Sequence record: MN850615.1
Source: Escherichia phage kvi
Reading direction: 5' to 3' (one strand)
DNA length: 64,000 nucleotides
Shown here: positions 39,956-62,591 of the stretch, in pieces
Layout of the letters: each line of letters starts with the position of its first letter
Numbering within the stretch: the stretch's first letter is position 1
The notes under the pieces: generated by a model
What the model was told of the DNA's origin: nothing
What the model saw: only the letters and a program-made list of their open reading frames with translations
Databases searched by the model: none
Program-made: the position numbers and the translations under genes

Positions 39956-39983
39956 ATTATAGCATACTCCCTTCGCATGTCAA
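39956..39983 (-). promoter_or_regulatory. sigma70-type early promoter (PeSL)
   Basis: TTGACA (39983-39978), 16-nt spacer, TATAAT (39961-39956); GGGAGTA…TACTCCC inverted repeat over the -10. Confidence 0.55.
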
Positions 39984-41158
39984 ACACTAACTTTTTTCTT
40001 TACTGCTTTCACCTTCTGGCGAATTGCTCGAATCTCTTCGATCTCTTTTTCAGTCTCTTTAACAATTTCTTTGCGATTCTGAATATCTGTATCGAGATTA
40101 TCATCAAGTTTAGGCAGCATGTCAATCAAGAACTTTTTAAGGTCTTTCAGGTTTCGAATAACAGCACCTTCGCCCATTACCGCAACACCCACACCATCCG
40201 GCAGATCACCAAACAGCTTAACCAGTTCAGACAGATGATCATGATCTTCTAGTGCTTCTTCCGGTTCAGATGGCAGTTCAACAAAGTTATAACGTTCATC
40301 ATTGCTGATCAAGTGATACCAGCAAAGCCCGAAAGATTTCGGTGTATATTCTACACCATCAATTTCAACCGCGTCAACACTTCCATAATCATCTACTTTA
40401 GTTACCTTAAATCCTTGTCCCAGCTTTTGAACAATTTCAACAACATGACTTGATACAGTTTCAGCGGTAAACCAATATGGCAAATTATGCTGATTTGGCT
40501 TGTAGCGTTCACCTACTTTAAATCTCTGACCATCCGCTTGCATAGCATGAAATTGTTGTTTCGTGATTTCCGCGAAGTATTCAAATTCGCTACCGTCAAA
40601 CAAGCAATTCCATTGATCACAAAAACGATCTGCCTTAACGGTTTCACCTTTCGCGGTGATCATGGTAGCTGATCCGTGCAATTCTTCTTCAACTAAAAAG
40701 CCATATTCGACAAAATCAACAAGTTTCATGGCTTCTTTGTGCTCTGGGTCATGCTCTCCCCAGAATCGCTTAAATTCTTGCAAACCTTCTGGGGTAAACG
40801 AATAACATTTACCTTTTTCAAAGTAAGTCGGCATTGCATCCTCTTTCTTGTTCATCGCTTCGTATGCCTCTTTTGAGATACGTTTAAAGTATTTGCGCTC
40901 ATTGTGCATAATCATAGTAGACCAATAATAAACGATATCCTCAGCGGAATAAACTACATCTCCAGCTTCAATAGTAATAACATGACCGTGGTCATCTTTT
41001 TCTAATACTTTAAAGCCCTTTTCTACGATTTCAGCAACCCGAATATGACCACGGCGCGAAGCATCGGTCAGAATAATTGAATAGCGAGAAAAGTCTAGAA
41101 ACTCATCTTTACCGCCTTCACGGAATGCATAGTAATGACCTTCAAAGAATTTAGCCAT
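39980..41158 (-). CDS. hypothetical multi-repeat protein (392 aa), paralogue family 2
   Basis: three internal modules GF(K/L)V…G.V……ERKYF shared with the next two ORFs. Confidence 0.5.
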   Translation of the reverse strand: MAKFFEGHYYAFREGGKDEFLDFSRYSIILTDASRRGHIRVAEIVEKGFKVLEKDDHGHVITIEAGDVVYSAEDIVYYWSTMIMHNERKYFKRISKEAYEAMNKKEDAMPTYFEKGKCYSFTPEGLQEFKRFWGEHDPEHKEAMKLVDFVEYGFLVEEELHGSATMITAKGETVKADRFCDQWNCLFDGSEFEYFAEITKQQFHAMQADGQRFKVGERYKPNQHNLPYWFTAETVSSHVVEIVQKLGQGFKVTKVDDYGSVDAVEIDGVEYTPKSFGLCWYHLISNDERYNFVELPSEPEEALEDHDHLSELVKLFGDLPDGVGVAVMGEGAVIRNLKDLKKFLIDMLPKLDDNLDTDIQNRKEIVKETEKEIEEIRAIRQKVKAVKKKVSV

Positions 41159-41189
41159 AATATAATCCTCTCGTTGTTTAGACGGGAGT

Positions 41190-41218
41190 ATCTTACTACT
41201 CCCGTTTCATCATGTCAA
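41190..41218 (-). promoter_or_regulatory. sigma70-type early promoter (PeSL)
   Basis: TTGACA (41218-41213), 17-nt spacer, TAAGAT (41195-41190); GGGAGTA…TACTCCC inverted repeat. Confidence 0.5.
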
Positions 41219-41799
41219 GCGTTAAATGACTTTTGGATCTCTTTCAGTTCAGCTACTTTATCGGCGCTGAATTTAGCGTAGGCATCATGTCGAATAATTT
41301 CACTTTCAAGAAAGGTTTCCAGCCGAGATCTATTTTCAATAAGGAACTCTTTCAGGTCTTCCGCGTTCTTGATAAAGATTTTATTGTCGGTAATGTCATC
41401 TTCAATCGCAAAGGAGATAGAGCGAACTTTACCAAACAAGTTAATCAGATCTTCCAGCGATTCTTCATTCTTAACTGGTTTCATTTCTTCAAACTGCTTT
41501 TTAGTGATGCGTTTAAAGTATTTGCGCTCGTTTGCAGCAATCAGAACAGATGCACCTTCATACCCATGAGTTTCTACCAGATACACACGCCCCATCGCAT
41601 CAACAGTGAGAACTTTAAAGCCGTTACAAAGCACGTCATACAAGAACTTATTATGTTGCGGACATCGTTTGATAAATTCTGCGGCTGTTTCTGCATTACG
41701 GAAAGTGTAATAACGACCTCGTTCAAAAACAGCATCATTTGAAGACTTAGCCGGATACAATTTATACGTTTTCTGTACCATAATATAATCCTCTATCAT
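41215..41799 (-). CDS. hypothetical protein (194 aa), paralogue family 2
   Basis: module …NGFKVLTVDAMGRVYLVE…ERKYFKRITKKQFEEM…. Confidence 0.45.
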   Translation of the reverse strand: MIEDYIMVQKTYKLYPAKSSNDAVFERGRYYTFRNAETAAEFIKRCPQHNKFLYDVLCNGFKVLTVDAMGRVYLVETHGYEGASVLIAANERKYFKRITKKQFEEMKPVKNEESLEDLINLFGKVRSISFAIEDDITDNKIFIKNAEDLKEFLIENRSRLETFLESEIIRHDAYAKFSADKVAELKEIQKSFNA

Positions 41800-42128
41800 T
41801 TCACTAATTGAACAGCACGGAACAGAATGCGCTCACACGGAAGCAGCATAAATTCCCAACGCGGATCAAAGTCTTTAGCGGTGTATGTTTTCCCATCAAC
41901 CGAGATTTCACTTACATAACCAACAGGTGACACTTTAAGAACAGTAAACCCATTCTTGATGACTTCGTAAGTATCTTTCACCCCTTCGTATTCATCATCT
42001 AAGAAGTCTTTATGTGCTTGCTCAGATTTAAAAACATAGGCCACACCGGATTTAAACATCTTACGCATTGTTGATTCTCCTTCTTGATTAGATGGGAGTA
42101 TTTTACTACTCCCATTTCTTATTGTCAA
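41796..42128 (-). CDS. hypothetical protein (110 aa), paralogue family 2
   Basis: module …NGFTVLKVSPVGYVSEISVDGKTYT…. Confidence 0.4.
   Translation of the reverse strand: MTIRNGSSKILPSNQEGESTMRKMFKSGVAYVFKSEQAHKDFLDDEYEGVKDTYEVIKNGFTVLKVSPVGYVSEISVDGKTYTAKDFDPRWEFMLLPCERILFRAVQLVK
42099..42127 (-). promoter_or_regulatory. sigma70-type early promoter (PeSL)
   Basis: TTGACA (42127-42122), 17-nt spacer, TAAAAT (42104-42099); GGGAGTA…TACTCCC inverted repeat. Confidence 0.5.
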
Positions 42129-42131
42129 CTA

Positions 42132-42605
42132 CTATCTTAATCTTTGTATGAATTGTTTCTTATACTTCTTCGTGATCTCTTCTCTTGTATCCGCGTCACA
42201 GTAATCGAAACCTTCTGCGTCCATAATAGCAACCATCTCCGCTCGTGTCAAGCGTGAAAATCGTTTTACTTTATCAACAGCATATTGAGGATGTAAATGA
42301 TTGTTGGTGTAGTCTCCTTTGATGTAATTAACATAGTTTGTAGCCCAAACAACGAAATCAGCACCTAAAGCACCAACACCAAACCGTTTAAAGTCTCCGG
42401 TCAACGATCCTTCTAGGCGGTTGCAACACGAATGAAGCAATCCCCTTACGCGGCCTTGCCCTTTCCCATCTAGATCATGATCATGGTCAAGATGGTTTTT
42501 GCTCATATCCTCAAAAAGTGGCAATTGACAAAGGGGGCAAATGCCCCCCTGTTTTTCGAATAGTTCTTGTTTGTACTCTTTAGCACTCTTAGCAGTCAGT
42601 AACAT
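42132..42605 (-). CDS. 49: endonuclease VII (Holliday junction resolvase)
   Basis: 157 aa from ATG at 42605 (GGAGGGTGA RBS), same length as T4 EndoVII; motifs …CPLCQ…HLDHDH…RGLL…CN…. Confidence 0.9.
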   Translation of the reverse strand: MLLTAKSAKEYKQELFEKQGGICPLCQLPLFEDMSKNHLDHDHDLDGKGQGRVRGLLHSCCNRLEGSLTGDFKRFGVGALGADFVVWATNYVNYIKGDYTNNHLHPQYAVDKVKRFSRLTRAEMVAIMDAEGFDYCDADTREEITKKYKKQFIQRLR

Positions 42606-42629
42606 AAATTCACCCTCCAAAGAAGGTAT

Positions 42630-61717: not shown

Positions 61718-61910
61718 TAGACACCCCACGACGATCAATTTCAAAAACTTTTTTACCATCAACGAAGCATGTCACAACTGCCTCGTTGACTTCCGCAAAT
61801 TGTTGTGTTACCCACTTAAGGTCAGAGCGAAACAATGTTCTATTAATAACAAATGTTTTACCGCTCTTATCCTTACCCATAAATTTTGCTTTAACCATAT
61901 CCAATTCCAT
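61707..61910 (-). CDS. hypothetical protein (67 aa)
   Basis: ATG at 61910 with AAGGTGA RBS. Confidence 0.4.
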   Translation of the reverse strand: MELDMVKAKFMGKDKSGKTFVINRTLFRSDLKWVTQQFAEVNEAVVTCFVDGKKVFEIDRRGVSNDH

Positions 61911-61919
61911 ATTATCACC

Positions 61920-62078
61920 TTATTTGCTAATCGCTAAACCCAATCCGAAGAGAGCACCCGATGCTACAGTATACCCGAAAGTTTCAAAGGCAGTAAAGAT
62001 ATCTAAGCCACCAGCTAACAGAGTTGCAGTAAACAGAGTACCAGCTACGAACATAAAAGTTTTACCGATAAATTTCAT
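61920..62078 (-). CDS. small membrane protein (52 aa)
   Basis: MKFIGKTFMFVAGTLFTATLLAGGL…; preceded by the conserved leader and GGAGAAUCAAG RBS; below track cutoff. Confidence 0.3.
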   Translation of the reverse strand: MKFIGKTFMFVAGTLFTATLLAGGLDIFTAFETFGYTVASGALFGLGLAISK

Positions 62079-62109
62079 CTTGATTCTCCTTTCGTTTGTT
62101 TGTGGGGGT

Positions 62110-62138
62110 ATCTTACTACCCCCGTTTCATGTTGTCAA
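62110..62138 (-). promoter_or_regulatory. sigma70-type promoter (PeSL)
   Basis: TTGACA (62138-62133), 17-nt spacer, TAAGAT (62115-62110); GGGGGTA…TACCCCC inverted repeat. Confidence 0.5.
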
Positions 62139-62144
62139 CTGTTT

Positions 62145-62525
62145 TTAAGAAAATTTTACTTCGTCTACAATGTCTTTCATGACATTGATTTCCATTCCGG
62201 TCAGAACACGTTGGAACATGTGCTGAACATACGCTTTCAGGTATTCATTTGATGGCTTGCTATCAAAAGTCTTTTTAGTATAGTAGTCATCACCGAAAGC
62301 TACTGTAATTACATTTTCGTCGTCGTTCCAAGCGATATAAGCAAATTTGCCGTTATCCCAGAAGCGAGCACTAATTGCTACTTTTGTTGAATCGAATCCT
62401 ACTTCGCTGTGAGATTCAAGAACTACTTGCGTGCCAGTTTCTTTATGAATGTAGTAGCGGGATACTAAGTCAAAATTACGGGTGTAGTGACATTCGAATT
62501 TATCTTTAAACATCATCATCATCAT
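62145..62525 (-). CDS. hypothetical protein (126 aa)
   Basis: ATG run (MMMMMF…) at 62525 directly after GGAGAAUCAAA RBS; the track ORF extends into the promoter. Confidence 0.45.
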   Translation of the reverse strand: MMMMMFKDKFECHYTRNFDLVSRYYIHKETGTQVVLESHSEVGFDSTKVAISARFWDNGKFAYIAWNDDENVITVAFGDDYYTKKTFDSKPSNEYLKAYVQHMFQRVLTGMEINVMKDIVDEVKFS

Positions 62526-62562
62526 TTTGATTCTCCTAAGTGTGTTTCGTTTCGATATGTGC

Positions 62563-62591
62563 ATTATGCTATAGTCGTTTATGGTTGTCAA
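62563..62591 (-). promoter_or_regulatory. sigma70-type promoter (PeSL)
   Basis: TTGACA (62591-62586), 17-nt spacer, CATAAT (62568-62563). Confidence 0.5.

Follow-up and report, generated by a model that had tools for sequence, protein, structure and literature searches.

Positions 39956-62591 of the genome of Escherichia phage kvi, within the 64,000-nt stretch of sequence record MN850615.1 analysed here (hereafter the window), are punctuated by recurring cassettes of promoter, stem-loop and leader placed between small accessory genes. The locus raises the question of what these cassettes are, and whether they do more than start transcription. We conclude that they are almost certainly promoter-early stem-loop elements (PeSLs) of the type described in phages RB49 and phi1, lying at orthologous intergenic sites of the hyperplastic early region. 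This kind of element is already known, from the same genus and the same loci; the finding is real, far from chance, and ordinary.

The window belongs to a Krischvirus, an RB49-like T4-type coliphage. Megablast queries with positions 45000-50000 and 39500-63000 against deposited phage genomes matched ~58-63 records, nearly all of them Krischvirus, collinear and 95-98% identical. Over 23.5 kb, nucleotide identity to six relatives (RB49, phi1, JSE, GEC-3S, Delraymugoa and FL20) is 96-98%, with Delraymugoa (97.8%) and FL20 (97.3%) the closest by identity and RB49 and phi1 at 96.6% and 96.1%, respectively. Every gene of the 64-kb window is encoded on the minus strand, and G+C content is ~40%. The stretch under study corresponds by orthology to RB49 36.5-61 kb, from nrdD to gene 1, and is rich in small open reading frames (ORFs), placing it in a hyperplastic region, as the published description of PeSLs has it.

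Every -35/-10 candidate was listed with its context, and those that were intergenic with a Shine-Dalgarno sequence (SD) and start codon downstream were retained. This gives 14 complete cassettes between 39956 and 62591, all intergenic and on the minus strand, plus one weak site (53435); each is named by the first base of its -35 hexamer (Table 1). In all 14 the -35 is TTGACA without mismatch, the spacer measures 17 nt in 12 cassettes and 16 nt in two, and the -10 hexamer matches TATAAT at 4-6 of six positions (TATAAT, CATAAT, TAAGAT, TAAAAT, TATACT, TACAAT or TAATAT); a leader of 22-40 nt follows, and then an SD (GGAG- or GAGG-type) and the ATG of a minus-strand ORF. An earlier note on this DNA, made from its letters, had described the same promoter layout, which is present in every cassette, and had named four clusters, which prove to be exactly these 14 sites. 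Its placement of the sites between genes and on the minus strand is likewise borne out; its count of more than 20 within the range is not, and was probably reached by including seven further strict matches (40125, 42251, 47853, 52254, 52765, 55187 and 57453) that are intragenic and without hairpin or leader. The GEC-3S record independently annotates 14 promoters across the orthologous stretch. Thirteen of the genes downstream of the 14 cassettes are annotated as hypothetical ORFs in RB49, the remaining one being frd.2.

Recurrence of promoter-like hexamers by chance in an AT-rich phage genome might be thought to account for such a series. The pattern TTGACA-N15-19-TANNNT has 36 matches in the window, all 36 on the minus (gene) strand, against 5.0 +/- 2.3 in shuffled sequences, none of 100 of which reached 36. 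Chance may well explain part of what a permissive search returns, given that the seven intragenic in-range matches resemble chance or unrelated sites and that loose promoter matches are common (91 found versus 59 expected). It is nevertheless refuted by the strict counts and their confinement to one strand, and by the fact that all 14 cassettes are intergenic, have hairpin, SD and ATG in register and are kept in the six relatives, leaving it a negligible likelihood.

A promoter-anchored alignment yields the consensus aaAAAGtTG-TTGACA-N17-[T/C]AtAAT-aCaCCC-ATCgAAAC, in which conservation extends well past the hexamers. This fits the logo of the RB49 early promoters, the consensus of which has T or C at -12 and is C-rich from -3 to -1, in agreement with earlier 5'-end mapping (Nolan et al. 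2006, PMC1524935). The upstream tract is A/T-rich, as in published PeSLs, with 12-18 of 20 bases being A or T in -20..-1 versus a window mean of 60%; for the three cassettes that have an upstream terminator, this tract is the T-run of that terminator. The leader is less uniform than the earlier note's description of a near-identical sequence after each promoter: its 40-nt version is matched at 34 or more of 40 positions in five of the 14 cassettes (46028, 48396, 59634, 60596 and 62591), and the others have only the leader ends in common (ATC(G)AAAC at the start, AGGAGAATCAAAATG at the end), with a different ribosome site, GAGAGGATTATATTATG or a close variant, at 39983, 41218 and 45353. GGAG lies within the SD of 11 of the 14 cassettes, and regB is located in the same window; RegB cleaves the GGAG of early messages in T4-type phages (PMC3014915) and may do the same at the ribosome sites of these leaders.

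The PeSL definition goes back to work on RB49 and phi1 (Arbiol et al. 2010, Genome Biol Evol 2:140; PMC2839356), where the element runs from an AT-rich tract through a near-consensus sigma-70 promoter to an SD and start codon, with a G(n)-loop-C(n) stem-loop placed at any of five positions. The cassettes of the window share all of these features and occur in the same genus and at orthologous loci, at a similar density (~24 cassettes per 64 kb in the whole window, compared with ~51-52 per 164-kb genome in RB49 and phi1). All 15 sites (the 14 cassettes and weak site 53435) are found at the orthologous position in each of the six relatives, the differences among the relatives' cassettes falling mostly in the unconstrained half of the spacer and in the hairpin loops; absence of the cassettes from relatives with conserved flanking genes, which the earlier note had named as the outcome that would count against it, is thus not what is seen. 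Cassette 46028 differs from RB49 PeSL211/210 (TTGACAggggatcacgtatccccTATACTacacacATCAAAACGAAACACACTTTCTTAAACGGAGAATCAAAAATG) only in the hairpin loop and two leader bases, and has a 33-nt core, AAGTTGTTGACAGGGGATCGGTGATCCCCTATA, that is identical to that of PeSL206/205, an element for which the 2010 report gives a promoter strength of ~13,000 Miller units (PMC2839356). The same anatomy, the same loci as in RB49 and phi1 and the near-identity of 46028 to elements that have been assayed bear out the PeSL reading of the earlier note. Membership of the family is assigned here by sequence features and orthology, and the functional features ascribed to the cassettes are those of the literature, in which early-promoter function and a role in gene shuffling form the published interpretation (PMC2839356). 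Differences from the RB49 and phi1 elements are not substantial: the window has a spacer-hairpin variant rather than an upstream terminator upstream of the ORF078 homolog, and no adjacent g38 cassette.

We next consider the stem-loop. A perfect-helix hairpin of -10 kcal/mol or lower is found in 13 of the 14 cassettes, against 9% of random same-strand 104-nt segments (Mann-Whitney p = 2e-7), the exception being the weak hairpin of 48396 (-7.0 kcal/mol). The earlier note had an inverted repeat overlapping the -10 in all cases, which overstates the uniformity. The hairpin does lie over the -10 in eight cassettes (39983, 41218, 42128, 45353, 54277, 59634, 62138 and, weakly, 48396), sits in the -35/-10 spacer in three (46028, 48103 and 60327) and is a separate upstream hairpin with a T-tract in a further three (49637, 60596 and 62591). 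Copies outside the range add hairpins that overlap the -35 (22063) or lie downstream of the -10 (11899, 18220 and 24089), such that every published subclass of PeSL hairpin position occurs in the window. For the -10-overlapping class, the base that follows the 3' arm of the hairpin is itself the predicted transcription start (an A, 7 nt past the -10); the cassette's own transcript would therefore lack the hairpin, and only read-through RNA arriving from upstream could form it.

Pairing within these stems is under selection. Covariation within the 7-bp core of the -10-overlapping class was assessed on an arms-only alignment of nine distinct sequences drawn from the window and its relatives. All cells pair (100%), a figure that is partly circular since the sequences were picked for folding; the compensatory changes at fixed positions, present in three of the seven pairs, are not circular, and none of 500 shuffles reaches the observed score. 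One core position appears as G-C, A-U and U-A, with a G.U intermediate. The sense-strand stems contain 15 G.U wobbles, a count for which hairpins were chosen on the sense strand only. In an unbiased test comparing the best hairpin of each strand, the sense version was the more stable in 25 distinct cases and the antisense version in 12 (mean -2.8 kcal/mol, p = 0.016), which modestly favours a role in the sense RNA and disfavours one on the opposite strand or purely in DNA. An Rfam scan of the window returned no family at its gathering score.

The anatomy suggests the following mode of action. The A/T-rich, UP-like tract and near-consensus sigma-70 promoter would permit use of host RNA polymerase right after infection, with transcription predicted to start at the A 7 nt past the -10; both the start sites and the early timing are expectations for this phage. 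The short, A-rich, unstructured leader, usually starting AUCGAAAC and ending AGGAGAAUCAAA-AUG, would supply the small ORF with a ready-made ribosome site. The G(n)-loop-C(n) hairpin, sitting in the promoter or just before it (its 3' arm ending at -1 in the -10-overlapping class), would form only in upstream read-through RNA and would end or attenuate that transcript, presumably also where no U-tract follows it; acting on read-through RNA, it would thereby let each cassette insulate one small transcription unit from the next. Because ~60-100 bp of common sequence recurs many times in the same orientation, the cassettes would also offer portable homology for recombination between copies.

The proposed ending of upstream transcripts has to be set against the form of the hairpins. 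Just upstream of promoters 49637, 60596 and 62591 stand full canonical intrinsic terminators, hairpin plus T-tract, and a consensus terminator scan of the gene strand picks only these (49651-49676, 60628-60649 and 62609-62629) and one site unconnected with a PeSL (55487-55511). The 11 promoter-embedded hairpins resemble intrinsic terminators in being GC-rich and intergenic but differ in having no U-tract, running instead into A-rich, U-poor sequence such as AUCGAAAC. The earlier note took the missing U-tract on the gene strand to mean that the stem-loops are probably not terminators. The observation stands for the 11 embedded hairpins and fails for the three upstream ones; the conclusion drawn from it conflicts with those three canonical terminators and with the published reporter assay of RB49 PeSL211/210, the hairpin of which likewise has no U-tract, lies in the -35/-10 spacer and is of the same type and position as that of 46028. 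According to that report, this stem-loop, placed between promoter and lacZ, strongly cut expression, about as much as the rrnB T1 terminator (PMC2839356).

Recombination was approached through gene-content differences, using chained alignments of the stretch with nine related sequences (eight phages). These reveal about eight distinct indels or replacements, only two of them within ~90 nt of a cassette (g38 at 48103, and one near 49637), a total number of events too small for statistics. RB49, phi1, JSE, GEC-3S, Delraymugoa and Whisky have a ~910-bp insert between the ORF080 and ORF078 homologs, in which two terminators flank g38 (encoding the adhesin of the long tail fibre) and a plain promoter follows. 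FL20 and the window (48069-48107) have the single spacer-hairpin PeSL 48103 instead, with homology picked up again in the leader at ATACCAACTAAGGAGAATCAAA; a tblastn search of the 64-kb window for a gp38 homolog found none. A 2025 paper notes gp38 near the holin in FL15, FL20 and FL04 and not in FL37 and FL38 (PMC12032242), hence both g38 positions are already on record. The second event near a cassette is a stretch of 71 nt, against 153 nt in phi1, at a distance of 87 nt from PeSL 49637. Events away from cassettes comprise homing-endonuclease insertions at 42925 and 55447-55474, and differences at 46861, 51758-51951, 56636 and 58644-59041. At point 42925, between nrdC and dam, GEC-3S has an HNH homing endonuclease; between nrdC.11 and vs.6 (55447-55474), JSE, Whisky, FL20 and LF73P4 have an insert of 525-600 bp, annotated as a homing endonuclease in JSE. 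Neither is at a PeSL.

Variation within the cassettes points to exchange between copies, as far as sequence comparison can indicate. The hairpin of 46028 has two alleles, GGGGATCggtGATCCCC in the window, RB49 and Delraymugoa and GGGGATcacgtATCCCC in GEC-3S, phi1, JSE and FL20, and both are also present at other RB49 loci (PeSL206/205 and PeSL211/210); exchange of the hairpin-loop alleles ggtg and cacgt is seen from locus to locus and from phage to phage. Upstream of the ORF078 homolog, likewise, the window and FL20 have one cassette variant and the other five phages another. A different hyperplastic region of the relative LF73P4 matches the window only in PeSL-sized pieces of 47-118 nt that are 78-100% identical. 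The unannotated LF73P4 record (OZ035795) also contains both reciprocal junctions, ORF071-PeSL-ORF210 and ORF211-PeSL-ORF070 (L008 ~12038-12130 and L011 ~4230-4314), of an apparent exchange between PeSL071/070 (window 46028) and PeSL211/210, which are ~80 kb apart in RB49. The ORF071-PeSL-ORF210 junction occurs in one of 58 Krischvirus records (LF73P4 only), and the record needs a further orientation flip; given that a real rearrangement cannot be told from misassembly at a ~90-nt repeat, these junctions were not used as evidence. A role in recombination is supported mainly by published work: sequencing of mini-circles from RB49 and phi1 placed their crossovers within PeSLs, with RB49 ORF192 and ORF210 named (PMC2839356).

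Several of these observations weigh against cassettes that both insulate and move genes. By sequence criteria, 11 of the 14 hairpins are not intrinsic terminators; functional support for termination comes from a single published reporter assay, and a lacZ read-out cannot separate termination from destabilisation or decay of the RNA; start sites, timing and termination in this phage are predicted from sequence; and mobility is weakly supported in the window, all cassettes being positionally conserved in the six relatives and most indels lying off cassettes. It is possible, if doubtful, that the embedded hairpins are not terminators at all and act post-transcriptionally as a 3'-end barrier to exonucleases, a processing site or a weak pause or attenuation signal, real termination being confined to the three upstream hairpin and T-tract sites, a position close to that of the earlier note. 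The A-rich, U-poor sequence behind 11 of the hairpins and the outcome of the gene-strand terminator scan agree with this, and the G.U pairs and covariation establish a selected RNA structure without indicating its role; the lowered lacZ expression reported for the PeSL211/210 stem-loop argues the other way. A related proposal, which we think unlikely, is that the embedded hairpins are a distinct RNA signal by which the upstream message would have its 3' end fixed precisely at -1 of the promoter that follows (through pausing, factor-dependent release or an exonuclease barrier), making each cassette a seamless junction of one transcript's end and the next one's start; on this proposal the same repeat may also have moved g38 between its canonical place near the holin and this region among Krischvirus lineages. 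Termination of transcription from the opposite direction by the -10-overlapping hairpins, which are followed by a T-rich run on the plus strand, is very improbable. The terminator scan flags plus-strand versions at 42090-42117, 54240-54265 and 62102-62125, scores that reflect the A-rich gene-strand sequence of the promoter spacer 5' of the stem. Against this, the window has zero plus-strand genes, the late-promoter box TATAAATA has four of four matches on the minus strand and none on the plus strand, the G.U wobbles of the stems become A.C mismatches on the plus strand, and stability favours the best hairpins of the sense strand over those of the antisense. The antisense idea was rejected on the lack of plus-strand late-promoter boxes and on the wobble pairs, which favour the gene strand.

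As to mobility, the cassettes could be nothing more than early promoters of the usual kind, each with a terminator nearby and a strong ribosome site, alike through common functional selection and vertical inheritance, immobile and without a shuffling role here. Conservation of 15 of 15 sites at orthologous positions in six relatives agrees with this, as does the placing of most indels off cassettes (42925, 55447-55474, 46861, 56636 and 58644-59041), with two of about eight events near one, an association that is not significant. The likeness between copies nevertheless exceeds what a promoter and ribosome site need, as in the leader ATCGAAACGAAACACACTTTCTTAA common to five loci; identical hairpin-loop alleles occur at different loci in different phages; the junction of g38 presence and absence lies inside a cassette; and the sequenced RB49 and phi1 mini-circles have their crossovers inside PeSLs. 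We consider the purely vertical account somewhat unlikely.

The assignment to the RB49 type is also apparent from comparison with other systems. PeSLs were later extended to further T4-type phages as the PeSLs/PmSLs of T4/PST and KVP40/nt-1 (Comeau et al. 2014, PMC4122927), which likewise combine promoter and terminator in one motif and lie in hyperplastic regions, close to indels and gene replacements. Their promoters (TTTACW..TAYWAT; TTGYVH..TAWWAT) and stems (A3-4G3...C3T3-4; AGNA...TCNT) differ from the RB49-type sequences of the window, and nt-1 has middle-promoter versions in addition (PMC4122927). Early promoters of T4-type phages in general resemble the cassettes in their use of host sigma-70 holoenzyme, an A-rich UP-like tract at about -40 and a position upstream of early genes; T4 has GTTTAC at -35, whereas the window has TTGACA (the E. 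coli consensus), and neither an embedded hairpin nor a common leader is part of the definition of a classical early promoter. The morons of lambdoid phages (Hendrix and colleagues, via PMC2839356) are similarly small accessory genes with their own promoter and terminator, transcriptionally insulated; their flanks, in contrast, do not recur as conserved repeats, nor are they regarded as bringing about their own movement, whereas PeSLs are repeated and offer homology (PMC2839356).

Table 1. Promoter cassettes of the window, named by the first base of the -35 hexamer (positions are those of the whole window; hairpin energies in kcal/mol; TSS, transcription start site).
Site	Neighbouring genes	Interval	Strand	-35 and -10	Hairpin or terminator	Leader, SD and start
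PeSL 39983	frd.2 / ORF057 homolog	39923..39995	minus	-35 39978-39983, 16-nt spacer, TATAAT 39956-39961	GGGAGTAT/ATACTCCC 39950-39971 over -10, -11.8	predicted TSS 39949; GAGG SD; ATG 39925
PeSL 41218	ORF059 homolog / frd.2	41156..41230	minus	-35 41213-41218, TAAGAT 41190-41195	ACGGGAGTA/TACTCCCGT 41182-41205 over -10, -14.5	GAGG SD; ATG 41158
PeSL 42128	gene 49 (endonuclease VII) / ORF060 homolog	42066..42140	minus	-35 42123-42128, TAAAAT 42100-42105	ATGGGAGTA/TACTCCCAT 42092-42115 over -10, -13.1	AAGGAGAA SD; ATG 42068
PeSL 45353	ORF069 / ORF068 homologs	45288..45365	minus	-35 45348-45353, TATAAT 45325-45330	45317-45342 over -10, -12.2, one U.G wobble	GAGG SD; ATG 45290
PeSL 46028	ORF071 / ORF070 homologs	45955..46040	minus	-35 46023-46028, TATACT 46000-46005	GGGGATC-ggt-GATCCCC 46005-46023 in spacer, -12.0	long conserved leader; ATG 45957
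PeSL 48103	ORF080 / ORF078 homologs	48043..48109	minus	-35 48098-48103, 16-nt spacer, TATAAT 48076-48081	CGGGGA-gaaa-TCCCCG 48081-48098 in spacer	ATG 48045
PeSL 48396	ORF081 / ORF080 homologs	48326..48408	minus	-35 48391-48396, CATAAT 48368-48373	weak imperfect hairpin only, 48358-48389, -7.0	long leader; ATG 48328
PeSL 49637	upstream of ORF084 homolog	49577..49676	minus	-35 49632-49637, CATAAT 49609-49614	canonical terminator AAAAGCCATCC-gaaa-GGGTGGCTTTT + T-tract 49651-49676, -16	short leader; ATG 49579
Weak promoter-only site 53435 (not counted as PeSL)	regB / vs.1	53370..53435	minus	TTGACT-17-TATTAT; promoter in GEC-3S annotation	no hairpin	unrelated leader
PeSL 54277	ORF096 / ORF095 homologs	54218..54289	minus	-35 54272-54277, TAATAT 54249-54254	GGGGGTA/TACCCCC 54243-54262 over -10, -12.5	predicted TSS 54242; ATG 54220
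PeSL 59634	55.3 / ORF113 homologs	59561..59646	minus	-35 59629-59634, CATAAT 59606-59611	GGGTGTAT/ATACACCC 59600-59621 over -10	long leader; ATG 59563
PeSL 60327	ORF117 / ORF116 homologs	60267..60339	minus	-35 60322-60327, TACAAT 60299-60304	GGGGAG-gataa-CTCCCC 60305-60323 in spacer	ATG 60269
PeSL 60596	upstream of ORF117 homolog	60519..60649	minus	A/T-rich tract; -35 60591-60596, CATAAT 60568-60573	canonical terminator AAGCCACTC-ttcg-GAGTGGCTT + TTTTTT 60628-60649, -14.3	long leader; ATG 60521
PeSL 62138	ORF125 / ORF124 homologs	62076..62150	minus	-35 62133-62138, TAAGAT 62110-62115	GGGGGTA/TACCCCC 62104-62123 over -10, -12.5	predicted TSS 62103; ATG 62078
PeSL 62591	57B / ORF125 homolog	62523..62629	minus	-35 62586-62591, CATAAT 62563-62568	canonical terminator ACCCCGAAA-ttt-TTTCGGGGT + TTTTTTT 62609-62629, -12.3	long leader; ATG 62525
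Cassette outside 39956-62591			minus	-35 at 4513		
Cassette outside 39956-62591			minus	-35 at 4882		
Cassette outside 39956-62591			minus	-35 at 11330		
Cassette outside 39956-62591			minus	-35 at 11899		
Cassette outside 39956-62591			minus	-35 at 18220		
Cassette outside 39956-62591			minus	-35 at 22063		
Cassette outside 39956-62591			minus	-35 at 24089		
Cassette outside 39956-62591			minus	-35 at 28880		
Cassette outside 39956-62591			minus	-35 at 36328		
Cassette outside 39956-62591			minus	-35 at 37480		

Some neighbouring features of the minus strand deserve mention. The -35 hexamers at 39978-39983 and 41213-41218 supply the TGA stop of the upstream gene (frd.2 and the ORF059 homolog, respectively), such that the end of the gene overlaps the next promoter. 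At 24035-24089, TTGACT-17-TATAAT is followed 7 nt later by the hairpin GGGGAGTATAAATACTCCCC, which has the late-promoter box TATAAATA as its loop, an arrangement that, going by its letters, may combine an early and a late promoter with one stem-loop. A canonical terminator with no promoter attached, AAGCCAATCC-gaaaa-GGGTTGGCTT plus T-tract (55487-55511), lies between nrdC.11 and vs.6 and resembles the hairpins upstream of PeSLs 49637 and 37480.

Two longer gaps adjoin PeSLs on the same strand. Between the ORF118 homolog and PeSL 60596 is a ~175-nt non-coding stretch (60622-60798), unannotated in RB49, with a late-promoter-like TATAAATA before it (60799-60806) and the terminator 60628-60649 at its end. 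It folds far better than shuffled sequences (z = -4.05, 0/200), and Rfam gave sub-threshold hits only and no family for 60550-60850; we regard it as a candidate late small RNA. The 260-nt gap between rI.-1 and PeSL 49637 (49645-49906), closed by the terminator 49651-49676, folds unremarkably (z = -1.5). Tiny ORFs are annotated there in relatives (ORF084.1 in phi1; 135 nt in Delraymugoa), and the phi1 version is 80 nt longer.

PeSLs were put forward, in 2010 and 2014, as a way by which T4-type phages may shuffle accessory genes with correct expression kept. The window brings no new kind of element to that proposal; what it confirms is the stability of the cassettes at orthologous sites from one Krischvirus isolate to another, with the adhesin gene g38 as one tidy difference bounded by a cassette. 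It also sharpens a point about the elements themselves, in that most of their hairpins are unlike intrinsic terminators, yet one of them is reported to act as a terminator.

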